48,861 nt of DNA from Dehalococcoidia bacterium UBA6808 (lineage in GTDB: Bacteria > Chloroflexota > Dehalococcoidia > GIF9 > UBA5629), in the NCBI GenBank assembly GCA_002452695.1, contig DKFA01000112.1, positions 50,832-99,692 of the forward strand. The letters run 5' to 3'. Each line of letters begins with the position of its first letter. Position 1 is the stretch's first letter. The translations under genes and the position numbers were made by a program. This document shows positions 1 to 45,323 of this stretch, piece by piece. The notes below the pieces were generated by a model. It was not told the DNA's origin, searched no databases, and saw only the letters and a list, made by a program, of their open reading frames with translations.

Positions 1-472
1 CCGTGGTGGCGCCGATAAAGGTAACATCCCCATTCTCAACGTAGGGCAGGATGGCATCCTGCTGGCCCTTGTTGAAACGGTGGATTTCGTCGATGAATAA
101 GATCGTCCGTTGCCCGCTGGCCTTTCTCCTGCGCGCGGCTTCATCAATAACCCTGCGCAGGTCGGCCACACCCGCCGTAACTGCGCTGAGCGGCACAAAG
201 TACGATCTGGAGACATTGGCAATGACACGAGCCAGCGTGGTCTTGCCGCTGCCAGGAGGTCCCCATAATATGATGGAGGGGAGCTGGTCTGATTCAATGG
301 CTTTACGCAAGACCTTGCCTTCGCCGATGATATGCCGCTGTCCGACATATTCGTTGAAATTCTGCGGGCGCAGGCGCGCCGCCAGGGGCATGGAAGCGGT
401 TGCCTGCTCCGGCTTTGCCCCGGCGCCCTTGTCACCCTGCAACTCGGGCGAACCGAGGTCGAAAAGTGTCAT
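1..472 (-). CDS. rarA: Replication-associated recombination protein A (RarA/MgsA AAA+ ATPase), N-terminal 157 codons; the 3' end runs off the window
   Basis: Absent from the ORF track because there is no stop in the window. Reverse-complement translation from ATG 472-470 reads MTLFDLG...DQLPSIILWGPPGSGKTTLARVIA (Walker A)...RTILFIDEIHRFNKGQQDAILPYVENGDVTFIGATT (Walker B and the RarA-typical block). The ATG overlaps the stop of the upstream gene (ATGA at 469-472). Confidence 0.9.
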   Translation of the reverse strand, partial: MTLFDLGSPELQGDKGAGAKPEQATASMPLAARLRPQNFNEYVGQRHIIGEGKVLRKAIESDQLPSIILWGPPGSGKTTLARVIANVSRSYFVPLSAVTAGVADLRRVIDEAARRRKASGQRTILFIDEIHRFNKGQQDAILPYVENGDVTFIGATT

Positions 473-1578
473 GGCGTGGGGTTCTCGCGTTTATTAATCT
501 GGGCAGCCACGTTAGAGGCCCGCTCGTAATAGTCTTTGATCTTATCCAGGTAGGTAATGCGGGATGCTATCAGCGTGACAGTAGCAATATCATTGACACC
601 GTAAAAATCGCCCCCTCTGACCTCGCCGTTATTGGTCAGCTCGCGCAGACGGTTGCCCACTGAGCGCGTCATGTTGATATTGGCATTCTTGCTGGGAACA
701 CACAGCAGATACAATGCCTTGCGGGCGTCTTCCAGCCTGCATTCAATGGAAAAATGCGCCAGGGCGGCGCTCATGGCCTCCATGACCTTGACGGTCTCCT
801 CGCCCTTGCTCTCAAAATTGTCGCCCTTCTTGAACAGCGAGAAGCCGGACGAGGGTATCTGCGCCGTACCGTAGCCGATGGCGCTCCAACCGCTGAGCGA
901 CTGGACGATATCGCCAACGCCAATATTCCTGGTTCCCAGGAACCTGGGGTCCACTTTCTCGCTGGCGCGCAGCAAGTCGAAGAACGGCGACACTATCTCG
1001 CGGTTGACCATGTCATTAGAGGCAGCCGACTTGATGCTGGCTTCAGACATCACCTTTTCATTATCGAACAGAAAGACCGCATCGGCCGTCTTGTCGATCG
1101 ATTTCAGACACAGTGCGGTATTATAGACACAAAGCGGTATATTGACCTCCGCCTGTAACGGCAGGACGATAAGAGCATAGAGCGGCTTGTTGACATACCT
1201 GTCCTTGAGTTTGCGGGCCAGGATCGATACGCCGCCGGAGCCGATGCAGCCCGCGCTGGATGACACCAGCAGAAAGGCGTCCGTCTCGAAGAACTCGCCG
1301 GCTTTCATAGTGGCAATGATACGGTCGCCGTTGGCCTTCATCAGTTCAGCGCCGGCTTCAATCTGCTTATTCCCGACGGCGGAAGCGGGGAGCTGGATGG
1401 TCAGCAGCTTTTCGCCGACCTTGCGTAACGCAGACAGAGAAGCCTGGTCATCATTGATGGCATAGGACCTTACCAGCACATCAACGCCGGTCTCAGCTTT
1501 GGCTTTACTTCCCAGTCGCACAAACTCAGCAGCAATATTGCTCCCACAGTCACCGATCCCAATTACTACAAGTTTCAT
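469..1578 (-). CDS. Tubulin/FtsZ-superfamily protein, CetZ-like, with a degenerate tubulin signature motif
   Basis: 369-aa ORF with GGAGG 8 nt upstream of ATG 1578. Family-typical segments are MKLVVIGIGDCGSNIAAEF (T1-loop region), DAFLLVSSSAGCIGSGGVSILARKLKDRY (aligns with GGGTGSG), FLFDNE and C-terminal GEVRGGDF. The family call comes from remembered CetZ/tubulin motifs and has not been searched. Confidence 0.7.
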   Translation of the reverse strand: MKLVVIGIGDCGSNIAAEFVRLGSKAKAETGVDVLVRSYAINDDQASLSALRKVGEKLLTIQLPASAVGNKQIEAGAELMKANGDRIIATMKAGEFFETDAFLLVSSSAGCIGSGGVSILARKLKDRYVNKPLYALIVLPLQAEVNIPLCVYNTALCLKSIDKTADAVFLFDNEKVMSEASIKSAASNDMVNREIVSPFFDLLRASEKVDPRFLGTRNIGVGDIVQSLSGWSAIGYGTAQIPSSGFSLFKKGDNFESKGEETVKVMEAMSAALAHFSIECRLEDARKALYLLCVPSKNANINMTRSVGNRLRELTNNGEVRGGDFYGVNDIATVTLIASRITYLDKIKDYYERASNVAAQINKRENPTP

Positions 1579-1710
1579 TAACTGGACCTCCCGTGGAATA
1601 TCTTAATCTGGGAGACAGTCGCTAAAACTTTACTGACTGAACGATCGCCTGGTCTCATTGAACCTGATATATACCATAACAGATAGGAGGGACTATGGCA
1701 ACCGCCTCTG

Positions 1711-2226
1711 CTACTTATATCTCTTCACCTCAAAACGGTACAGTTGGACCGGCTCAGAACTCATTATTCCTGCCTTTTGCCTGCAGATGGCAATCTGTGT
1801 TTCAACATCGTCCACCCCTTCCAGATCGGGCAGAAGCAGCCCGCGGCGGAAGCCTGCCTGTACGATAACCCCGTACTTCCTGGGATCAAGCAATGCTTGA
1901 TCCTTGATCGGCTCGGGGTGTGTCAGCACATCGACACTATATTCGAGGTCTTGCAGTTCTGATGGTTTGACCGGCGGAAAACGCGGGTCTCCCACAGCAG
2001 ACGCGATGGCGTTTCGCACTATCTCGTCAGCAATATTAGCTTCCATCGGTTCGAAGGTACCAATGCAGCCGCGCAGCTGGCCGCGCTTTTTTAAAGAGAC
2101 GAACACTCCTGCCCTTTCTTTCATCTCGGGTGTCAGGTCTGACGGGTGCAGGACTTTGCCCTCGTTAACAAAGGCCTCAACAGCCTGTTTGGCAAGCTGC
2201 GCCAGTGGATGCATATCTTTTTTCAT
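1711..2226 (-). CDS. AMMECR1-domain protein (AmmeMemoRadiSam system protein A)
   Basis: 171-aa ORF with the hallmark [18 protein letters not shown] and later PDLEGVD...Y. It lies 13 nt downstream of the Memo-like gene. Confidence 0.9.
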
Positions 2227-2239
2227 AAGCGCACCACCA

Positions 2240-3046
2240 TCATTTGCTGATAATTATTCCAGCATAGCCGACCACACTGGAATAATCACCTGACGTATCG
2301 CCGCTGGTCTGGTACTTGACCAGCTCCGCCCTTTCTGCCCCCATTTCTTTAGCTGCCGTGATCAGGCTGATCACAGGAGCATAACCACACATGGTGATCC
2401 CATACCTGGCGATGCGTTTGACCAGCTCGTCGGCATCCAGATCGAGGATAGCATCTATGGCCTGTCTGTCTTTGCTTTTGGCGCTCTCATGCGGCTCATA
2501 GTGCGTCATATCGCTGCTGGCCAGTATCACGGCATCCGATCCGGTCTTTTTCAAAGCCCGCGAAAGCGCAAGCCCGATCTCATTGTAGACTGAGGGATCG
2601 GCCTGCGCCAGTATGATGGGGACGATGGATACATCAGGCTTGAAATACTGCAGAAACGGCAGTTGCACCTCCAGGGAATGCTCATAGAGGTGGGCCACAT
2701 GATCTGCTTCCAGATAGCGGGACTCTCCCAGTATCTCAGAGGCCAAGGCCACATCGATGGGTGTCTCTCCCAGGGGCGTTTTCCACCGGCCGTCCTTCAT
2801 CAGACTGAAAGGTTTGCCCATGCCATGGTGATTTGGGCCAATCAGGATAAATGTGGAAGGAAACTTCAGGATGGAAAATACGGCGCCGGCCACCGGCCCC
2901 GAGTAGACATAGCCGGCGTGAGGACAGACCAGTCCTATGGCCTCTCGTTTTACCTCACCTTTGGGAGTCATGTATTCGATTATTTTACGTAACTCGCCAG
3001 GCCGGTTCGGGTAGAATTGGCCTGCTACTGCTGCTTCCCTGATCAT
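2240..3046 (-). CDS. MEMO1-family protein (AmmeMemoRadiSam system protein B)
   Basis: 268-aa ORF with [23 protein letters not shown] and SSDMTHYE, the His/Asp/Cys metal-site pattern of Memo. Its ATG overlaps the radical SAM stop (ATGA at 3043-3046). Confidence 0.9.
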
Positions 3047-4086
3047 TTCCGCACCTGCGTATTCAGTGTATTCCGGATATTCAATTCAGCGCCACAAACA
3101 GCGCAATTTGCGCCTTTAAGGGCCTTTATCCTGGTATGGTAGCCGGTCCTTTCAATTACCTGCGTGCCACAATTGTAGCACACCGTGTTCTCATAAGAAT
3201 GGCCGGGCACATTGCCCAGGTAGACAAAGCGCAACCCTGCCTCTTTACCCAGCGAGACAGCCTTCTCAAGCGTTGCAATGGGAGTGGGCGGCAAATGACT
3301 GAACTCATGGTGTGGATAGAATCGCGTGACATGCCAGGGCGTCAGTTCGCCCAGCTTTTCTCTGATCCACATGGCGATGTCCGAAAGCTGGGCATCATCA
3401 TCGTTAACCGATGGAATAACGTTGGTGACAACCTCGACATGCATATTCCACTTATGCCTGGCCCGTTCCGCTGTTTCCAGTATTCCCCTCCAGCCCTTGA
3501 CCTTCGCCAGCTTACGGTACACCCCGTCGGTAAAGCCCTTGATATCCACCCGCCAGGCATCCAGGTAAGGCCCAATTACATCAAGGGCTTCCGCTGTCAT
3601 AAAGCCGTTGGTAACATAAACGGTATATAGCCCCTGGCGGCGCGCCAGTTTGGCAGTATCCAATGTATATTCGAACCAGACGGTCGGTTCATTGTACGTC
3701 CAGGCCAGCCCGGCGCAATGCTGCTGCTCTGCCAGCTTGACCGCCTGCTCCGGGCTGATAATATCCAAGCTGCGCTGTATTTCAGCCGGATTTTCCACAC
3801 AGGCGATCTGCCAGTTCTGGCAATGGGCACAATGGAAATTGCAGCCGACCGTGCCAAAAGACAACACTGTAGTGCCGGGGAAAAAGTGAAATAACGGTTT
3901 TTTCTCGATCGGGTCCGCAGCCAGCGAGGAAACCCTGGCGTAGTTGAGCGGGATTACGCGGCCATCTTCGTTGCCCCGGACACCGCATACGCCGGTCTTG
4001 CCCGGGTTTATCACACAGCGCCACAGGCAGACATTGCAGCGTACCCGGTTACCAGATAGTTTATCGTAAAGAAGCGCCTCCTCCAT
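3043..4086 (-). CDS. AmmeMemoRadiSam system radical SAM enzyme (PFL-activase-like)
   Basis: Carries the CNFHCAHCQNW (CX3CX2C) radical SAM cluster motif. Extra Cys pairs occur at the N-terminus (CNVCLWRC) and C-terminus (CYNCG...CAVCG). I prefer ATG 4086 (MEEALLYDK), preceded by GGAGAGGGG, over the track's TTG at 4104. Confidence 0.88.
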   Translation of the reverse strand: MEEALLYDKLSGNRVRCNVCLWRCVINPGKTGVCGVRGNEDGRVIPLNYARVSSLAADPIEKKPLFHFFPGTTVLSFGTVGCNFHCAHCQNWQIACVENPAEIQRSLDIISPEQAVKLAEQQHCAGLAWTYNEPTVWFEYTLDTAKLARRQGLYTVYVTNGFMTAEALDVIGPYLDAWRVDIKGFTDGVYRKLAKVKGWRGILETAERARHKWNMHVEVVTNVIPSVNDDDAQLSDIAMWIREKLGELTPWHVTRFYPHHEFSHLPPTPIATLEKAVSLGKEAGLRFVYLGNVPGHSYENTVCYNCGTQVIERTGYHTRIKALKGANCAVCGAELNIRNTLNTQVRK

Positions 4087-4264
4087 ATAAGCCCCTCTCC
4101 ACAATTATAACACGCCAAAGACAACGGGGTACTGACAACCTGAAAAACCGCTCCACCATCACTTATGAATAATAGTCCCGGATAGACAGCGCTTTAATTA
4201 TTCTGTGAAATATAAAAGCATGGCAGTTCGAGCCGCTTCAAACAAGAAAATATGTCTTTTAGCT

Positions 4265-22112: not shown

Positions 22113-22158
22113 TACATCGTATGCAAATAAACGAATATGTTACTTAGTAGTGTCTATA

Positions 22159-22188
22159 TTGACTTTTCACCCTGCAACGCATTACTAT
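22159..22188 (+). promoter_or_regulatory. Divergent promoter for the glmM cluster: TTGACT, 18 nt, TACTAT
   Basis: TTGACT at 22159-22164 and TACTAT at 22183-22188, about 27 nt before ATG 22215. Confidence 0.5.
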
Positions 22189-22214
22189 CAGGTAAAAATT
22201 TTCTTGTTCGCAAC

Positions 22215-23585
22215 ATGAGTATGATAAACAAACGGTTGTTTGGCACCAGCGGCATACGTGGGGTAGTAAACCGTGACCTGACCCCTTCGTTATGCAGTGA
22301 CATAGGCAGGGCATTGGGCACTATGCTGCCGGCTGGATCATCTGTATGTATGGGGACTGATTCACGGTTGAGCCGCGAAATGGTCAAGCAGGCGGTATCG
22401 GACGGATTGATTGACGCGGGCATCAATGTGGCACATCTCGGTATTGTCCCCACACCGGCCCTGGCCCTGCTGACCAGGGAAATCGGTTTCGATGCCGGGG
22501 TGATGATCACGGCCTCGCATAACCCGCCTGAATACAACGGGATCAAACTGTTTAACAGGGACGGCATCGGGTACAGCAGGGACCAGGAAGAGGTCCTGGA
22601 AAACATCTATTACGAGGGAAAATTCAGAATCAGCAAAACAGGCGCCGCTGAAACGCTCATGCGCGCCCGGCTGAGATATATGGAAGCCATCAAGCCGCTG
22701 ATCAAGGATTTCAAATTTAACACCGATCTGAAGCTCCTCGTAGACCCCGGCGGCGGGGCGGCTGCCGGCTTCGCCAGCTATATTTTGGAGAGCCTCGGTT
22801 TCAAGGTTATATCGTTTAACGATGTGCCTGACGGGCGTTTCCCCGGGCGCAATCCGGAACCCCGTGAAGACACTCTCCTGGAAACAATGCGCTTCCTGCG
22901 GCAGAAGAATGCGGACCTGGCTGTCTGTTTCGACGGCGATGCCGACCGCGTCGTTTTCTGTGACCAGACTGGATTTCTCGGCTTTAATGAAATGCTGGCC
23001 TACATTTCGCGCCTGGTCGTTAAAATGACCGGCCGTAAAACGGTCGCCGCCACTGTTGAAACCGGTATCCTGCTCGATTGCGCCATAGAAGACCTCGGAG
23101 CCAGTGTGATTCGCGGTAAGGTCGGTGATGTTTATACCGCCTATCTGGCACGCGATAACAACTCCGCGCTCGGGGTTGAGCCGGCCGGAGTATACATCAT
23201 ACCGGAAGCAGGCTACTATCCCGACAGCATCTACGCAACTTTATTACTCCTTTCCTCTCTCAGCAATGTTGCTGAGATCAGGCAGTTTTTCAGGACATTG
23301 CCTCCGCTTTTTTTCAGCAAGGACAGGGTGGATTGCCCTGATGACCGTAAACAAGCGGTGATGGAAAAAATAAGGCAAAAGGCAGCCTTTCTCAAACCGG
23401 TTGCCATTAATGACCTGGACGGCCTCAGGCTGGAGTTCGGGGGATCCTGGATGTTAATCAGGGCATCCGGCACAGAGCCCGTCATAAGAATAATGGCAGA
23501 ATCGAAATCACAGGTTTATACGCATGACCTGCTGACTGGCGGTGTCGCGATTGTGCGTGATTCGATCAAAGAGGTAGGCGCTTGA
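22215..23585 (+). CDS. glmM: Phosphoglucosamine mutase / phosphohexomutase (archaeal-type GlmM)
   Basis: LFGTSGIRG, the active-site loop ITASHNPPEYNGIK, FDGDADR, and a C-terminal RASGTEP phosphate-binding loop. I prefer ATG 22215 (MSMINKRLFGTSGIRG) because the track's ATG 22137 lies upstream of the predicted promoter elements. No clear SD is present. Confidence 0.88.
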   Translation: MSMINKRLFGTSGIRGVVNRDLTPSLCSDIGRALGTMLPAGSSVCMGTDSRLSREMVKQAVSDGLIDAGINVAHLGIVPTPALALLTREIGFDAGVMITASHNPPEYNGIKLFNRDGIGYSRDQEEVLENIYYEGKFRISKTGAAETLMRARLRYMEAIKPLIKDFKFNTDLKLLVDPGGGAAAGFASYILESLGFKVISFNDVPDGRFPGRNPEPREDTLLETMRFLRQKNADLAVCFDGDADRVVFCDQTGFLGFNEMLAYISRLVVKMTGRKTVAATVETGILLDCAIEDLGASVIRGKVGDVYTAYLARDNNSALGVEPAGVYIIPEAGYYPDSIYATLLLLSSLSNVAEIRQFFRTLPPLFFSKDRVDCPDDRKQAVMEKIRQKAAFLKPVAINDLDGLRLEFGGSWMLIRASGTEPVIRIMAESKSQVYTHDLLTGGVAIVRDSIKEVGA

Positions 23586-24925
23586 AGGTAGTATTCCTGT
23601 GCGGCGGTGTCGGCAAGAGGATGTTCCCCATCACCGAAGACAAGTTCCTCATCAATTTCATGGGGTGTACGCTGCTCGAACGCCAGATTATCCTGGCGCG
23701 CGATGCGGGACTGACTGATTTTGTCATTATCAGCAATCCGGCCAATATCGACCGCATTAAACGGGCCGTTTCTGCTATCAGCGGCGCCAATTTCGCCTTT
23801 ACCATACAGCAGCAGCCCCTGGGAATAGCCGACGCTTTGAAAAGCGCAGCCTCATTACTTGACGAAGCAATACTGGTCGTCAACCCCAACGATGCTTTTG
23901 AGCAGTCCGCTTACAAAGCATTACTGGCTGCCTCAACCAGGGAGAAAGCAGTTTCATACATGCTGGGCTATGAGGTCAATCAGTATTTCCCCGGTGGTTA
24001 CCTGGCTGTTGACAGCCACAATCTCCTTACCCGAATAGTGGAGAAGCCTGCGCCCGGAACAGAACCGGGCAACCTGGTCAACATCCTGCTTCACCTGCAT
24101 ACCGACACGGATAGGCTGTTCAAATATATGGCAGCCGCCAAAACGAACCGTGATGACGTCTACGAATGCGCCATGGACAGAATGGTCAAAGACGGTTACA
24201 GCATTGAGGTAGTACCCTACAGCGGAGCCTGGGCGCCGATCAAATACCCCTGGCACATACTGGATGCTGTTAAACTATTGCTGGACTTAAGCGAACGGAG
24301 TATAGCTCCATCAGTCAGCATCTCTGAACGCGCCACTGTAGCCGGCAAAGTAATTATCGGTGAAAATGTGCGGATACTGGAAAACGCTGTAATACGCGGC
24401 CCGGCTTACATCGGCCCGAACACGATCGTAGGCAACAATGCCTTGATCAGGGAATACAGTCACATAGGCGCCGGCTGCGTGGTCGGTTTTTCTACGGAGA
24501 TCAAAGGATCTTACATAGGCAACAATTGCTGGTTCCACTCCAACTATATCGGCGATTCTATCATTGGCAACAATTGCTCGTTTGGATCCGGCATGGTCAC
24601 AGCAAATTTCCGCTTAGATGAAAAAGAGGTTAAAGTTAAAGTAGGCGGCGATGTGCTTTCCACAGGCAGGGACCATTTCGGCGTCATTATCGGTGATAAT
24701 TGCAAAATGGGCATCAATTCTGGAATACTGCCGGGCCGGCGCGTGGGGCCTAACTCGATCGTGGGTCCGCATGTATGCCTGGATAATGACCTGGGCCCAG
24801 GCCAGATGGCGCTCGGTCGGCAGGAGTATAAGCTTGTCAAACACGGCATCGAGTTGGCTGCAGCAAAAAAAACAGGGACAGAAAAAACACCCCCGGTAAA
24901 TAATGCCTTCAATAGACAGAGATAG
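23582..24925 (+). CDS. Bifunctional sugar-1-phosphate nucleotidylyltransferase / hexapeptide-repeat acetyltransferase (GlmU-like, archaeal architecture)
   Basis: The N-terminus MKVVFLCGGVGKRM carries the GxGxR nucleotidyltransferase loop. The C-terminal half is made of left-handed beta-helix hexapeptide repeats (IGENVRI, IGPNTIV, IGAGCVV, IGNNCWF, IGNNCSF, IGDNCKM). The TTG start overlaps the glmM stop (TTGA). Confidence 0.82.
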   Translation: MKVVFLCGGVGKRMFPITEDKFLINFMGCTLLERQIILARDAGLTDFVIISNPANIDRIKRAVSAISGANFAFTIQQQPLGIADALKSAASLLDEAILVVNPNDAFEQSAYKALLAASTREKAVSYMLGYEVNQYFPGGYLAVDSHNLLTRIVEKPAPGTEPGNLVNILLHLHTDTDRLFKYMAAAKTNRDDVYECAMDRMVKDGYSIEVVPYSGAWAPIKYPWHILDAVKLLLDLSERSIAPSVSISERATVAGKVIIGENVRILENAVIRGPAYIGPNTIVGNNALIREYSHIGAGCVVGFSTEIKGSYIGNNCWFHSNYIGDSIIGNNCSFGSGMVTANFRLDEKEVKVKVGGDVLSTGRDHFGVIIGDNCKMGINSGILPGRRVGPNSIVGPHVCLDNDLGPGQMALGRQEYKLVKHGIELAAAKKTGTEKTPPVNNAFNRQR

Positions 24926-25607
24926 ATTACCCCGTCATGTTGCCATCGTTATGGATGGCAATGGCAGATGGGCTAAAAAGAGACGAAAACCGCGTCTGTA
25001 TGGACATCATCAGGGAGCGCTGCATGTCCGCGATTTCATCGAGATGTTCTCTGTTTACGGAATCCCTTATCTGACGCTATATGCCTTTTCCACCGAAAAC
25101 TGGAACCGCCCCGAAGCTGAGGTACAGGGTATCATGTCGCTCATTTCTGAAAATTTTGATGAGACCATTGAGTTCGCCCGTAACGGCAACATCAGGTTTA
25201 ACCATCTGGGCACGCTCGACCGCCTGCCTCCCGCCATCCAGCAAAAGGCTGCCCAGGCTGTCGAAATGACGCGCAATAACACCGGTTTGACGGTCAATGT
25301 CGCCTTTAATTACGGCGGCAGGAGCGAGATCATACGCGCGGTGCAGAACATCATCAAAGCAGGCATTGCCGCAGGTGACGTCACTGAAGAGTTGTTCTCG
25401 CAGCACCTCTATACCGCAGGCATGCCTGACCCCGACCTGTTTATCCGCACCGGCAATGAATTACGCATCAGCAATCTGCTGATCTGGCAAACGGCCTATA
25501 GCGAGCTCTATTTTACGCCTGTACTCTGGCCTGATTTTGGGAAAAAAGATTTCGAAAAAGCTCTGCAGAACTACAGTAAACGGCAAAGGAGGTTTGGCGG
25601 ACTCTGA
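24903..25607 (+). CDS. uppS: Isoprenyl transferase (undecaprenyl-diphosphate synthase family, cis-prenyltransferase)
   Basis: HVAIVMDGNGRWAKKR, FSTENWNRP and IRTGNELRISNLLIWQTAYSELYF. It overlaps the upstream gene by 23 nt. Confidence 0.93.
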   Translation: MPSIDRDRLPRHVAIVMDGNGRWAKKRRKPRLYGHHQGALHVRDFIEMFSVYGIPYLTLYAFSTENWNRPEAEVQGIMSLISENFDETIEFARNGNIRFNHLGTLDRLPPAIQQKAAQAVEMTRNNTGLTVNVAFNYGGRSEIIRAVQNIIKAGIAAGDVTEELFSQHLYTAGMPDPDLFIRTGNELRISNLLIWQTAYSELYFTPVLWPDFGKKDFEKALQNYSKRQRRFGGL

Positions 25608-33853: not shown

Positions 33854-34960
33854 ATGGGAAAAATTAACGTAGCCATAATAGGAGTTGGGAACTGCGCTTC
33901 TTCCTTCGTACAGGGAGTGCATTATTACAAGAAAGCTAAAGAGGATGAGTTCGTGCCCGGCCTGATGCACGTCAACCTGGGCGGTTATCACATCAAAGAT
34001 ATTAACTTTGTGGCCGCTATCGATATCGACAAGAACAAGGTCGGCAAAGACCTGGCAGAGGCCATTTTTACACCCCCCAACAACACCTACAAATTTTGCG
34101 ATGTTCCGACAACCGGCGTCAAAGTCGTACGAGGCATGACGCATGACGGATTGGGTAAATACCTGGGCAAGATCATTGAAAAGGCCCCCGGCCCCACGGC
34201 CAACATCGTTAACATCCTCAAAGAGGCCAAGGCCGATGTGGCCATTAACTACCTGCCCGTGGGCAGCGAGGAAGCGACCAAATGGTATGTTGAGCAGCTA
34301 TTGCACGCAAACATTGGCCTGGTGAACTGCATCCCCGTGTTTATAGGCAGAGAACCCTACTGGCACAACCGCTTCCTGGAAGCCGGCCTTCCTGTAATTG
34401 GGGACGATATAAAATCACAGGTCGGCGCCACCATCGTACACCGCGTGCTGACCAGGCTTTTCCGCGATCGCGGCGTCAAGCTTGAGCGCACCTACCAGTT
34501 GAACTTCGGCGGCAATACCGATTTCTACAATATGCTTGAGCGCGAGCGTCTCGAATCGAAAAAAATTTCCAAGACTAACGCTGTTACCTCCCAGCTTGAT
34601 TTTGAAATGAATCCCGACAATATCCATGTAGGCCCCAGTGATTATGTGCCCTGGCTGCTCGACCGCAAATTTTGCCATATCAGGATGGAAGGCCGCACTT
34701 TCGGCGACGTACCGCTCAACCTGGAATGCAAACTCGAAGTCTGGGATAGCCCCAACTCGGCCGGCGTGGTTATTGATGCTGTACGCTGCCTCAAAATAGC
34801 CAGAGACCGCGGGCTGGCCGGGGCCATTGTCGCTCCCAGTTCCTATTTCATGAAATCGCCCCCCATCCAGTATTCAGACGACGAAGCCCGCAGGCGCGTT
34901 GAGCAGTTTATCAGCGGCAAGGATCAGCAACACCCGATCAGCTTGCCGGAATCGGCATAG
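33854..34960 (+). CDS. ino1: myo-Inositol-3-phosphate synthase (MIPS)
   Basis: [32 protein letters not shown] is the hallmark N-terminus of prokaryotic MIPS, and 368 aa is the typical length. Confidence 0.88.
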
Positions 34961-35002
34961 CTGCAGGGAAGTTATCATAGATACGAGTTTCACATCTGAA
35001 TA

Positions 35003-36133
35003 ATGAAGATCGGGATTGTCTCCGCTTATGACTATTCTCACCCGGGCGGTGTTATCAACCACGTGTCCTATCTCGGCTATTATCTGCAGGCCAGAGGACA
35101 TGAGGTAAAAATCATCGCCCCCATGCACCGTAAGAACGCACGTTATTTCGGTGAGGATGTCTTGCCGGTCGGGAGACCCATACCCATCCCTTATGGTGGC
35201 ACTACTGCGCGCATACCGCTCTCGCCCTGGCTGCCTTATCAGGTCAACCACGTGCTGGAACGTGAGAAGTTCGACATCATCCATCTGCACGAACCTTTCA
35301 TCCCCATGCTTTGTCTGAGCATCCTGACGAAGTCCCAAACCGTCAACATCGGCACTTTTCATGCCTGCCATGACCATTCCGTCATGTACTGGCTGGGACA
35401 GCCCATTATGCACAAGCTTGGCAGGAAATTGCATGGCAAGATTGCCGTCTCAAAGCCGGCCCTCGACTATATCTCGAAATATCTGCCTGGTGAATACAAC
35501 ATTATTCCCAATGGCGTAGACACCAGGCACTACCGTCAGGATGGCCCTGTTCGCCAGGAGCTCAAGGATGGAAAGTTGAATATACTTTTCGTCGGCAGGC
35601 TGGAAGAGCGCAAGGGCGTCGGCGACCTGATACGCGCCTGCGCCTATGTGAAAAAGGAATACCCCAACTTCCGCCTGATCATAGCCGGCCCCGGTATCAG
35701 GCTGCGCACCTACTATGAAATGCTGGCCCGAACATTATTGGGCGACCAGGTGGTTTTCACCAGGTTTGTCCCATTCGATCAATTGCCCCAGTATTACCGT
35801 ACAGCCGATATCTTCTGCTCGCCTGCTAACAGCGGAGAAAGCTTCGGTATTGTGCTGCTGGAAGCCATGGCCAGCGGCACCCCTGTAGTTGCCACCAATA
35901 TCCCCGGTTATGCCAGTGTGATCACGCACGGTGAAGATGGGTTGCTGGCCACACCTTCGGATGAGCGTGCCATTGCCGATGCCCTGCTCACCATGATACA
36001 TGACAGCAAGCTGAGGCAGCGTATCATCGACAGGGGTCTGGTCACCGCGGAGAAATATAGCTGGGAAAACGTCAGCAGGCAGGTTGACGAATATTACAGG
36101 ACTATCAGCGACGGCTATAAAGAGGGTATTTGA
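35003..36133 (+). CDS. GT4-family glycosyltransferase, PimA-like
   Basis: MKIGIVSAYDYSHPGGVINHV and ESFGIVLLEAMASGTPVVATN (the GT4 EX7E region). Confidence 0.82.
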   Translation: MKIGIVSAYDYSHPGGVINHVSYLGYYLQARGHEVKIIAPMHRKNARYFGEDVLPVGRPIPIPYGGTTARIPLSPWLPYQVNHVLEREKFDIIHLHEPFIPMLCLSILTKSQTVNIGTFHACHDHSVMYWLGQPIMHKLGRKLHGKIAVSKPALDYISKYLPGEYNIIPNGVDTRHYRQDGPVRQELKDGKLNILFVGRLEERKGVGDLIRACAYVKKEYPNFRLIIAGPGIRLRTYYEMLARTLLGDQVVFTRFVPFDQLPQYYRTADIFCSPANSGESFGIVLLEAMASGTPVVATNIPGYASVITHGEDGLLATPSDERAIADALLTMIHDSKLRQRIIDRGLVTAEKYSWENVSRQVDEYYRTISDGYKEGI

Positions 36134-36733
36134 TTGTCAACTTTTCAGGATTTCCGTAAGAAACTGCAGCGTGGCATTACCGCTCCCCTGGTGCCTCTGA
36201 TCAGCAAGCTTAAACTGACCCCCGATGCCATGACGGTCGCAGGCATCTTGCTTAATCTGATAGCTGCCGCTGTCATAGGTTTCGGCCATGTGTTTACAGG
36301 TGGTCTAGTGTTCCTGCTGGCCGGGCTGTTCGATATGCTGGATGGCGCGTTGGCGCGTTACATGGACAAAACCAGCAAGTTCGGCGCCCTTTTCGATTCC
36401 GTTTCCGACCGCCTGACCGAAGCTGCAATTTTCATCAGCTTCATTTTCATTACCAGTGCCGGTGTTTGGCCCTACAATATCACCTGGGAGCTTGTACTGA
36501 TCATGCTGGCACTGACAGGATCATTCCTGACCAGCTATATCCGGTCCCGGGCCGAAGGACTGAATATAGAATGCACCGTCGGCATTTTCACCCGTCCTGA
36601 GAGAGTGATCGTGCTGACGCTGGGGCTGCTGCTCAACCTGGTCTTCGTTGCTGTGGCCATAGTGGTCGTTTTCTCCTGGATTACCGTTGGCCAACGTTTT
36701 TTTCACGTCTGGCAAAACACGCGGAAAGTATAA
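36134..36733 (+). CDS. CDP-alcohol phosphatidyltransferase (phosphatidylinositol-phosphate synthase-like)
   Basis: DMLDGALARYMDKTSKFGALFDSVSDRLTE matches D-x2-DG-x2-AR...G-x3-D-x3-D. The protein has 5-6 TM segments. The TTG start directly abuts the GT4 stop. Confidence 0.82.
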   Translation: MSTFQDFRKKLQRGITAPLVPLISKLKLTPDAMTVAGILLNLIAAAVIGFGHVFTGGLVFLLAGLFDMLDGALARYMDKTSKFGALFDSVSDRLTEAAIFISFIFITSAGVWPYNITWELVLIMLALTGSFLTSYIRSRAEGLNIECTVGIFTRPERVIVLTLGLLLNLVFVAVAIVVVFSWITVGQRFFHVWQNTRKV

Positions 36734-43649: not shown

Positions 43650-45323
43650 ATGACTTCACAGGTCTTCTACCGCAAATGGCGGCCTCAGACATTCTCAGAA
43701 GTAGCCGGCCAGGAACATGTTGTGCAGACCCTGCGCAATGCCGTTAAGAGCAACCGCATTGCTCATGCCTACCTGTTCTGCGGCCCGCGCGGCTCAGGCA
43801 AAACATCCACTGCACGCATCCTCGCCAAGGCAGTCAACTGCCAGTCTCCCATCGAGGGTGAGCCCTGCAATAATTGCGATTCCTGCCTGGCCATCAACAG
43901 GGGCAACGCCATTGATATCATTGAGATCGACGAGGCCAGCAACCGCGGCATCGATGATATGAACGACCTTAAGGAGCGTGTCAACTACGCCCCCAACATC
44001 CTGCGTTACAAGGTCTACATCATCGACGAGGTACATATGATTACCAGGGAGGGCGCCAACGCCTTCCTGAAGACCCTGGAAGAACCCCCTCCGCATGTTA
44101 TTTTCATACTGGCTACCACTGACCCGCACAAGATCATTTCGACCATCACTTCGCGCTGCCAGCGTTTCGATTTCCACCGCCTTTCCTCGGCTGCCGTCAT
44201 CTCCCGCCTGTCGCACATCTGCAGCCAGGAAGGAGTGAAGGTCGATCCCGAAGCCCTTAAACTGATCGCCAAGGTGACCACCGGCAGCCTGCGTGACGCC
44301 ACCAACCTGCTTGAGCAGCTCATTACATATTACGGCGCAGATATCCAGATGGCACAGGCGCAGGCTATGCTGGGCATCAGCGGGGACCTGCGCATCCGCG
44401 AGCTGGCCGGCCATATCATCAACAGGGATGTTTCCTCCGGACTCAAGGTGATCAATGCCGTGGCATCCGAGGGACTCGACCTGCGGCAGTTCAACAGGGA
44501 ACTGGTGGACTACCTGCGCCAGTTGCTCCTGGCCAGGTCCGGCTCAGCCGATATGATCGATGCCACGGCCGACGACCTCGCTGAGATGCAAAGGGCAGCG
44601 GGCGGCGCCACGCTTGATTACCTGCTTAACACGGTCAAGCTTTTCAGCGCTGTGGACATGCGCATGGATACCTACTCGTCACTGCCGCTGGAGCTCGCCC
44701 TGGTCGAGAGCGTCATCTCCGCCAATGGCAAAGAAAAGGCGACCGAACCGGCGCCGCGCAGCGACTGGGGCACACGCAGCGCTTCCACCCCCTATAAGGC
44801 CACCAGGCCGGCAGAAGCAGCACGCCCGGCCAGCCTGGTAAGCAAACCTGCCGTAAATCAGTCCAGTTTAGCGCCTGCACAGCAAGCCGAACTGGCAGAA
44901 CCTGCTGAAGAAGGTGAGACCACTCTTGGCGCTCCGCTCAAGATGGAAAACCCCGCCGACCTGGATTATATCAAGCAGCACTGGAAGTTCTTTATTAACT
45001 CTATGCGCGGCGAGGGTTCGGGCGGTAACCTGGATGCCCGCCTGCGCCATGCCTGCGAACCGGTTGAGATCAAAGAAGGCGTTCTGGTGCTGGGCTTTTT
45101 TCACGAGTTCCACAAGAACTATATAGATAACCGCAAATACCTTCATCTGATTGAAAAAAAGCTTAAGGAAGTCTTCGGGCATTCCTATACAGTCAACTGC
45201 GTATTGATTCCGCAGGGGCAGAAAACGGAGCTTAAACCGACCAGCAGCAACCATCTGGTCGAAGCTGCCCTGAGCATGGGCGCGCGGATTGTCGAAGAAA
45301 ACGCTGATACGGAGGAAAAATGA
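43650..45323 (+). CDS. dnaX: DNA polymerase III subunit gamma/tau
   Basis: YRKWRPQTFSEVAGQEHV, GPRGSGKTSTARILAKAVNC, Zn-module cysteines (CNNCDSC), IIDEVHM and SRCQRF. Confidence 0.96.
   Translation: MTSQVFYRKWRPQTFSEVAGQEHVVQTLRNAVKSNRIAHAYLFCGPRGSGKTSTARILAKAVNCQSPIEGEPCNNCDSCLAINRGNAIDIIEIDEASNRGIDDMNDLKERVNYAPNILRYKVYIIDEVHMITREGANAFLKTLEEPPPHVIFILATTDPHKIISTITSRCQRFDFHRLSSAAVISRLSHICSQEGVKVDPEALKLIAKVTTGSLRDATNLLEQLITYYGADIQMAQAQAMLGISGDLRIRELAGHIINRDVSSGLKVINAVASEGLDLRQFNRELVDYLRQLLLARSGSADMIDATADDLAEMQRAAGGATLDYLLNTVKLFSAVDMRMDTYSSLPLELALVESVISANGKEKATEPAPRSDWGTRSASTPYKATRPAEAARPASLVSKPAVNQSSLAPAQQAELAEPAEEGETTLGAPLKMENPADLDYIKQHWKFFINSMRGEGSGGNLDARLRHACEPVEIKEGVLVLGFFHEFHKNYIDNRKYLHLIEKKLKEVFGHSYTVNCVLIPQGQKTELKPTSSNHLVEAALSMGARIVEENADTEEK

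Follow-up and report, generated by a model that had tools for sequence, protein, structure and literature searches.

A CetZ-type tubulin paralog with altered GTPase motifs in a conserved rarA gene block of Dehalococcoidia

Introduction

CetZ proteins, members of the tubulin superfamily, are still mostly described as archaea-specific. In tubulin and FtsZ, the phosphates of the nucleotide are held by the T1, T3, and T4 loops, the gamma-phosphate is sensed by T3, and the active site is completed by the T7 loop of the next subunit. Pairs of catalytic and noncatalytic subunits are an organizing principle of eukaryotic microtubules, in which alpha-tubulin holds a nonexchangeable GTP and supplies the catalytic residue E254; the nonhydrolyzing site binds GTP through intact loops, and hydrolysis does not occur there because beta-tubulin lacks the T7 acid. 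Pseudo-GTPases are rare in this superfamily. Here, we analyze a cetZ-like gene at positions 469..1578 (minus strand) of a 48,861-nucleotide stretch of contig DKFA01000112.1 from Dehalococcoidia bacterium UBA6808, referred to as the window. The encoded protein belongs to a paralog lineage, termed type B, in which the phosphate-binding motifs are altered or missing. The host class is itself unusual: Dehalococcoidia have no peptidoglycan, carry S-layers, and are disc-shaped.

CetZ-like proteins of the Chloroflexota-Dehalococcoidia were reported in a 2023 survey by Santana-Molina et al. (PMC9871819), which called them CetZ-like paraphyletic groups, and their location in bacteria is therefore not new. 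In Dehalococcoides mccartyi, an "FtsZ/Tubulin GTPase" (btf_0551) that is separate from FtsZ was detected and quantified in proteomes, and a correlation between proteome and morphology was described for this tubulin-like protein (PMC8163811). The canonical ftsZ-ftsA pair of that species is DET0343/DET0342 (PMC5102406); this FtsZ-FtsA pair is separate, which speaks against a CetZ-like protein being the division protein.

Results

The window protein is a CetZ-type member of the tubulin superfamily

The window gene encodes a real, well-conserved tubulin/CetZ-type protein of Dehalococcoidia, as judged from the list of open reading frames, Pfam and Protein Data Bank (PDB) matches, an AlphaFold2 (AF2) model, and the ratio of nonsynonymous to synonymous substitution rates (dN/dS). 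The first-pass annotation, made from the sequence alone, had described a reading frame of 369 residues with a good Shine-Dalgarno sequence, and indeed GGGAGG (1592-1587, minus strand), read off the sequence, lies 8 nt 5' of the ATG start at 1578-1576. The Pfam Tubulin model (PF00091) matches residues 3-177 (E = 1e-21; 78.6 bits against a gathering cut-off of 33), and CetZ_C (PF21011) matches residues 188-355 (E = 2.9e-11; 43.6 bits against 21.6). In a phmmer search of the PDB, Haloferax volcanii CetZ1 (4b46) aligns across residues 1-355 with E = 1.1e-27, ahead of CetZ2 (4b45; 1.7e-14), 3zid (1e-7), and tubulins (at least 3e-7). All four segments previously picked out as CetZ-like align with CetZ1: MKLVVIGIGDCG pairs with MKLAMIGFGQAG, ETDAFLLVSSSAGCIGSGG with EVDAFLVVSGLGGGTGSGG, FLFDNE with LVFDND, and GEVRGGDF with MEVRGGDY.

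Structure prediction gives the same assignment. An AF2 model based on an alignment of 145 sequences (pLDDT 92.2, pTM 0.91) superseded one made from the single sequence, which was unusable at pLDDT 35. The predicted structure has the two-domain tubulin/FtsZ fold, with a Rossmann-like N-terminal domain, an H7 helix, and a C-terminal domain. Foldseek returned 1138 PDB matches at E ≤ 0.001, the best 50 of which all belong to the tubulin superfamily (CetZ, TubZ, and FtsZ). CetZ2 (4b45; TM 0.80/0.88) and CetZ1 (4b46; 0.77/0.86) rank first and second, followed by TubZ (4ei7; TM 0.75, third), a Methanosaeta CetZ, and many FtsZs. Together, the significant Pfam matches, the predicted structure, and the Foldseek ranking make the assignment to family and fold solid.

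Sequence relatives are annotated by their sources as "cell division protein FtsZ," "tubulin/FtsZ family protein," or "hypothetical." We considered and ruled out a misannotated FtsZ: the NCBIfam FtsZ equivalog model (TIGR00065) scores 17.2 bits against a cut-off of 295.2, a CetZ_C domain is present, and the nearest structures are CetZ. The window protein shares superfamily and fold with FtsZ but lacks the GGGGxN T1 loop and the tail that binds FtsA or SepF. A tblastn search of the 48.9-kb window with a type A protein (the other paralog, described below) and Bacillus subtilis FtsZ found neither a second tubulin gene nor ftsZ, and an FtsZ query gave zero matches in the first 85 loci collected.

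With archaeal CetZ1 and CetZ2 (4b46 and 4b45), the window protein has in common the two-domain fold, the Tubulin and CetZ_C domains, and the acidic residue of T7, where Asp223 aligns with CetZ1 E218, the acidic catalytic position of the family, and with FtsZ D212. The differences are nevertheless considerable. Sequence identity reaches only 23-28%, the host is a bacterium, the protein falls outside the CetZ1/2 clade in a neighbor-joining (NJ) tree, and it has lost the T1 Gln, the T3 GHGVG, and the T4 Gly-Thr; it also has no acidic/hydrophobic C-terminal tail motif. The gene neighborhood differs as well from that of archaeal cetZ genes, which adjoin genes for pili, cofactors, and sugar epimerases (PMC9856176).

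Two paralog types differ in their nucleotide-binding loops

We sorted 92 distinct proteins from 85 loci by gene position alone, which gave 46 of type B and 46 of type A. As defined here, the type B lineage occupies the position between AMMECR1 and rarA, has decayed T1, T3, and T4 loops, and is without an LPSL tail; the window gene shows all three features. PROSITE gives the tubulin signature as [SAG]-G-G-T-G-[SA]-G. This signature is absent from every protein at the AMMECR1-X-rarA position (46/46), as is the tail (46/46), whereas the proteins encoded elsewhere, type A, have the signature in 46/46 cases and the tail in 45/46. Type A proteins are about 392 residues long (390-395), with T1 GQCG, T3 GHGVG, T4 AGGTGSG, T7 DAGD, and a C-terminal tail (L/I)P(S/T)L(L/I). 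Type B proteins are shorter (354-386 residues), with T1 G(D/N/K)CG, a 4-residue deletion at T3 that removes GHGVG, T4 AG-x-(I/L/V/F)-GSG, usually (L/I)G(I/V)GD at T7, and no C-terminal tail motif.

In the T1 loop of the window protein (GIGDCGSNIA, residues 7-16; 1531..1560, minus strand), an Asp stands in place of the invariant Gln of GQCG. Column statistics for this position 10 are Q in 46/46 type A proteins and D42/N2/K2 in type B. The former T3 loop, the gamma-phosphate sensor (residues 62-73; 1360..1395, minus strand), has lost GHGVG through the 4-residue deletion and is hypervariable, with an entropy of 2.6-3.1 bits across type B at positions where GHGVG is invariant in type A. The T4 signature reads AGCIGSG (residues 109-115; 1234..1254, minus strand). 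Across type B, position 111 reaches 2.4 bits (C, S, N, F, Y, R, and others) and position 112 is always hydrophobic (L, V, I, or F). Finally, the T7 loop (NIGVGD, residues 218-223; 910..927, minus strand) has lost its first Asp (D220G) and keeps Asp223 at the catalytic position; position 220 is G31/D13/S2 in type B versus D46 in type A, and position 223 is D44/E2 in type B.

The first-pass annotation had read the T4 sequence as three departures from GGGTGSG. Two of these, G to C and T to I, are specific to the lineage, but the first, G to A, also occurs in the AGGTGSG of type A, is permitted by the PROSITE signature, and is thus not specific. The altered motif belongs to a set of four coordinated losses, in T1, T3, T4, and partly T7, that marks the whole paralog lineage and not this gene alone.

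Entropy is zero in type A at Q10, the G-H-G-V-G of T3, G111, T112, and D220. Both types retain G110, G113, S114, E144, N153, D172, N173, N192, G222, and D223, and type B also keeps G115; E144, N153, D172-N173, and N192 are ribose/base contacts. The T7-H8 motif GDIxQ is common to types A and B. Overall, 26 sites are at least 90% conserved in A and less than 50% in B, with two sites in the opposite direction; the T2/T3, T4, and T5 loops of the nucleotide face account for 18 of these 26.

The Dehalococcoidia type A proteins are 37-42% identical to the window protein, form its sister clade, and have the same fold. Motifs in common are the tubulin-like T1 Cys, YNTAxCLK, DN, GDIxQ, GWTAIG, and IRGGDF. 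Unlike the window protein, type A has every GTPase motif as well as the tail, its rate of evolution is lower by a factor of about 3.3, and its genes lie in envelope-glycan, Rho/Big_13, or dnaX contexts. From its annotation alone, btf_0551 of D. mccartyi probably belongs to the type A group.

Several type B proteins diverge further. A basal subgroup (L054 10001-11104 and L058 14444-15508; proteins P0085-P0091 and P0103) has T1 GKSG or GKGG and T4 A-W-G-N-F-G-S-V-L or GNFGSKM, with the GSG half of the signature also gone. Several distant type B proteins (P0039, P0047, P0050, and P0084; loci L042, L044, and L043) end in Lys/Arg-rich sequences such as GKKRKKKPS, and P0084 carries an 80-residue K/S/T-rich extension. 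These tails could bind DNA or acidic membranes. The tail of the window protein is not basic (two K/R among the last 15 residues). A database protein, P0187 (403 residues), matches residues 1-55 of the window protein at 76% identity and is unrelated in the rest, probably owing to a frameshift or to chimeric assembly.

Type B evolves quickly under strong purifying selection

Type B arose by duplication of a canonical type A gene. The NJ tree, distance-based and lacking support values, was built from 369 trimmed columns with FtsZ as the outgroup. In it, type B is monophyletic, long-branched, and sister to the Dehalococcoidia type A proteins; the A+B group, together with uncharacterized intermediates, falls outside the clade of H. 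volcanii CetZ1 and CetZ2, and the window protein is accordingly not placed among archaeal CetZs by this tree. Across 91 genome pairs carrying both genes, mean identity is 84.7% for A-A and 59.6% for B-B comparisons. Type B is the more divergent in 91/91 pairs, at a rate ratio of ≈3.3.

This divergence is accompanied by strong constraint. Within the close clade of the window gene, dN/dS of type B is 0.03-0.07, 140 of 369 positions are invariant across 41 distinct close relatives, and no locus has a disrupted reading frame. We rejected a pseudogene because of these dN/dS values. Mean entropy within the close clade is 1.38 bits in the T3 region and 1.40 bits in the C-terminal tail versus 0.50 bits overall, and position 111 varies among C, F, Y, R, and V. 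Little variation is seen in T1 (GIGDCG; mean entropy 0.23 bits), in the DNE motif, or in T7-H8.

All named homologs and all 76 loci from species-representative genomes come from metagenome-assembled genomes of Dehalococcoidia/Chloroflexota. At least 563 stretches of species-representative genomes encode relatives, and type A relatives number more than 5,600 at E ≤ 1e-30. As the first-pass annotation had pointed out, the informational genes in the window are bacterial (NusA, IF-2, TruB, PNPase, DnaX, and ribosomal proteins L21, L27, and L31), and the host is therefore a bacterium.

The type B gene is coupled to rarA in a conserved gene block

The cetZ-like gene is cotranscribed and translationally coupled with rarA in a conserved block of six genes, in the order radical SAM, Memo (or a LigB-type gene), AMMECR1, type B, rarA, and alpha/beta hydrolase. 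This block is present in every type B locus from 43 to 100% identity to the window protein, save that locus L056 has a type B gene without adjacent rarA. In the window, the stop codon of the cetZ-like gene (TGA, 471-469) overlaps the rarA start (ATG, 472-470) in the sequence ATGA (469..472, minus strand). The overlap had been noted before, and a survey of relatives shows that it is identical in 25/25 close relatives; the variant T4 motif is conserved in relatives too. In distant loci, the gap between type B and rarA is mostly -4 to +13 nt.

The window holds the 5' part of rarA/mgsA (1..472, minus strand), an AAA+ gene that continues past the window end; the identical gene in locus L001 encodes RuvB_N, AAA, AAA_assoc_2, and MgsA_C domains. 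Directly 5' of the cetZ-like gene lies AMMECR1 (1711..2226, minus strand), assigned from Pfam on the identical L001 gene and from synteny in all type B loci. It is preceded by a Memo-family gene (2240..3046, minus strand) and a radical SAM gene (3043..4104, minus strand), both assigned from the L001 annotation and synteny; the three make up an AmmeMemoRadiSam-type trio. In many distant relatives 0-3 nt separate AMMECR1 from type B, as against 46-147 nt in the 25 close relatives and 132 nt in the window. The gap in the window holds a sigma-70-like match (TTGCCA-17-TATGGT, with TG; 1673..1701, minus strand) that, at 9/12 matches in a consensus scan, is a weak promoter candidate. An Rfam scan of the whole window found zero RNA families and hence none in this gap.

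Our literature search found no paper on degenerate CetZ paralogs and none tying AmmeMemoRadiSam, RarA, and tubulin-like genes together. Both the split into a canonical and a pocket-decayed paralog and the fixed AmmeMemoRadiSam–B–rarA operon appear to be undescribed.

Type A genes occur near type B in some lineages

In 14 genome loci whose type B proteins are 43-54% identical to that of the window, a type A gene lies 2-9 kb (mostly ≈5 kb) from type B, and nine further metagenome loci have the same arrangement. In most of these loci the nearby type A gene is on the strand opposite to the type B operon. An example is L008 (16480-17661, minus strand), which encodes a protein of ≈393 residues with intact GTPase motifs and the LPSL tail; other loci with A near B are L037, L044, L046-L049, L051, L053-L058, L076, L084, L116, L132, L134, L139, L152, L153, L156, L160, and L164. 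No type A gene occurs within 10 kb on a 295-kb contig of the window's clade, and when metagenomes were scanned for type A, none of the contigs recovered came from samples in which that clade occurs.

Genes for Rho and a Big_13/TIG protein sit next to type A, joined in some genomes by two STT3/AglB genes, glycosyltransferases, and an ABC2 exporter. In L088 (1-21182; JGI Ga0247841_10000215), type A sits inside a cell-surface glycan cluster with two STT3/AglB-type oligosaccharyltransferases, CTP synthase, and Rho, followed by an ABC2 exporter and three glycosyltransferases of family GT2. A 600-residue TIG/Big_13 protein is encoded directly upstream of type A in L088, and a Big_13 protein is upstream in L008 too. 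In one Dehalococcoidales group (L077 9938-13270; also L066, L067, L072, L082, and L083), type A lies ≈150 nt upstream of dnaX-ybaB-recR, which makes this the second instance of a CetZ-like gene next to an AAA+ gene of the clamp-loader type. The dnaX of the window (43650-45323) has an empty 436-nt gap upstream with no tubulin remnant. Two type A copies ≈4 kb apart, which fall in separate subclades of the tree, occur in L060, L069, L073, L078, and L080 (uncultured Dehalococcoidaceae and one Dehalococcoidales).

Other genes around the operon

Just past the left end of the window, a conserved 439-residue protein (L001 13121-14440, minus strand) has a lipoprotein-type N terminus (…FILTACGD) and no Pfam domain; its gene faces the operon in convergent orientation at almost every type B locus and lies near type A at several loci. 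Divergent from the operon is a fructose-1,6-bisphosphatase gene of the FBPase_3 family (PF01950; 4420-5514, plus strand), which we take to be the archaeal-type class V FBP aldolase/phosphatase. Farther along, genes for a phosphoglucosamine-mutase-like protein, a GlmU-like nucleotidyl/acetyltransferase, and undecaprenyl-diphosphate synthase are grouped at 22137-25607 (plus strand), a supply of sugar nucleotides and lipid carrier in a lineage thought to be without peptidoglycan. Consecutive genes for myo-inositol-1-phosphate synthase, a GT4 glycosyltransferase, and a CDP-alcohol phosphatidyltransferase at 33854-36733 (plus strand) suggest synthesis of an inositol-containing lipid or solute.

Discussion

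A possible noncatalytic partner of type A filaments

The first-pass annotation had proposed a divergent tubulin homolog nearest to CetZ with a possibly impaired GTPase, a proposal that the hidden Markov model matches, the fold, and the motif pattern support. On the evidence of these motifs, the window protein is probably no longer a normal GTPase. Because type B has lost the elements that handle phosphate and yet keeps T7, its own GTP turnover would be gone, and docking through T7 would still be possible. We consider the chances evenly balanced that type B is a nonhydrolyzing co-subunit or end-cap that docks on type A filaments. In such a scheme, the nucleotide site of type B would have stopped sensing and hydrolyzing GTP normally, leaving the protein with a noncatalytic role, structural or regulatory, as a subunit within a cytoskeleton of the CetZ type. 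The T7 face of type B, which is intact, would insert into the GTP face of canonical type A, the upper face of type B, which is decayed, would be unable to support normal GTP-dependent addition, and type B would thus either co-assemble with type A filaments or cap them. By analogy with archaeal CetZ, and with the type A gene neighborhoods in mind, A-type filaments may organize the shape and envelope of these wall-less, S-layer bacteria.

A parallel to such an arrangement may be found in alpha/beta-tubulin and BtubA/B, which would resemble the proposed pair in their working only, in that a paralog without turnover supplies the catalytic T7 residue to its partner. Unlike alpha/beta-tubulin, the phosphate loops of type B are themselves decayed, and a heterodimer is here putative.

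Several observations weigh against the docking of type B on type A. The kept G110, G113-S114-G115, and base contacts, along with the conserved Asp10, indicate that some ligand may still be bound, and the loss of GTP binding or hydrolysis is itself proposed from motifs. The first T7 Asp is also lost in the window's clade. Moreover, the putative partner is not close at hand: among ≈15 loci of this clade (74-100% identity) with enough flank, none has a type A gene within ≈10 kb, and the tblastn search found no type A gene in the 48.9-kb window.

Alternative readings

Some of the same observations bear on the main rival reading, which we regard as rather unlikely, in which type B is a self-sufficient, nucleotide-dependent homopolymer that binds GTP, or some other nucleotide, through T1, T3, and T4 by an altered mode and uses the T7 Asp. 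Conservation of Asp223 (D44/E2) makes most sense if the nucleotide of some subunit is hydrolyzed, and retention of G110, G113, S114, G115, E144, N153, N173, and N192, the strong conservation of T1 GIGDCG in the close clade, and the lack of a nearby type A gene in that clade all fit a protein that assembles on its own. However, the T3 sensor is deleted and evolves freely despite an overall dN/dS of ≈0.05, the third Gly of the signature is replaceable by F, Y, or R while the Thr is always hydrophobic, and a negatively charged Asp takes the place of the phosphate-contacting Gln. To our knowledge, no tubulin-family GTPase tolerates changes in T1, T3, and T4 combined.

Instead of a role in cell shape, type B might form a DNA-associated filament like that of TubZ and, together with RarA and perhaps also the proteins of the AmmeMemoRadiSam trio, take part in replication, segregation, or repair of the chromosome. 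This role, which would be compatible with the other readings, seems to us distinctly unlikely. It draws on the ATGA overlap in all 25 close relatives and the small gaps in distant ones, the persistence of the six-gene block down to 43% identity, the Lys/Arg-rich tails of several distant type B proteins, and the type A gene directly upstream of dnaX-ybaB-recR in another Dehalococcoidales group. TubZ is the third-best structural match, and a link to DNA-handling genes is a possible further likeness. Yet all loci come from one bacterial class, and the gene order may therefore simply be inherited; the tail of the window protein is not basic, neither centromere-like repeats nor an adaptor gene was seen, type B and rarA are not adjacent in L056, and a RarA-tubulin partnership is without precedent. 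The window gene also differs from TubZ in its 15% identity, in having no TubR/tubC-like partner nearby, and in being chromosomal and inherited vertically across the class.

That type B is a decaying, functionless duplicate or a misannotated FtsZ, as its evolution faster than type A and the "cell division protein FtsZ" labels of relatives could suggest, is highly improbable given dN/dS of 0.03-0.07, the 140 invariant residues, a frame intact everywhere, and an FtsZ model score of 17 versus 295 bits alongside a CetZ_C domain and nearest structures that are CetZ.

Implications for the Dehalococcoidia cytoskeleton

Returning to type B as a noncatalytic partner of type A, an extended form of this proposal would give the Dehalococcoidia a two-component tubulin-like cytoskeleton, of separate evolutionary origin from eukaryotic alpha/beta-tubulin, in which A is the GTPase and B a dedicated nonhydrolyzing partner or end-cap that keeps only the catalytic T7 face; expression of B would be locked translationally to that of RarA, a protein of the replication fork, coupling filament control in these wall-less cells to the state of replication. 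Taken as a whole, this extended proposal is unlikely.

The bacterial CetZ-like branch is large and vertically inherited, and the labels "cell division protein FtsZ" and "hypothetical" on its genes are a practical issue for annotation. Within it, one paralog has shed its phosphate-binding loops specifically, while under strong purifying selection. In Dehalococcoidia, CetZ-like proteins are obvious candidates for setting cell shape, a role on which the correlation of proteome with morphology in D. mccartyi is the one indirect piece of evidence. If the proposed pairing is true, the bacterial A/B pair would be a tractable, independent case of an evolving division of labor between tubulin-type subunits.

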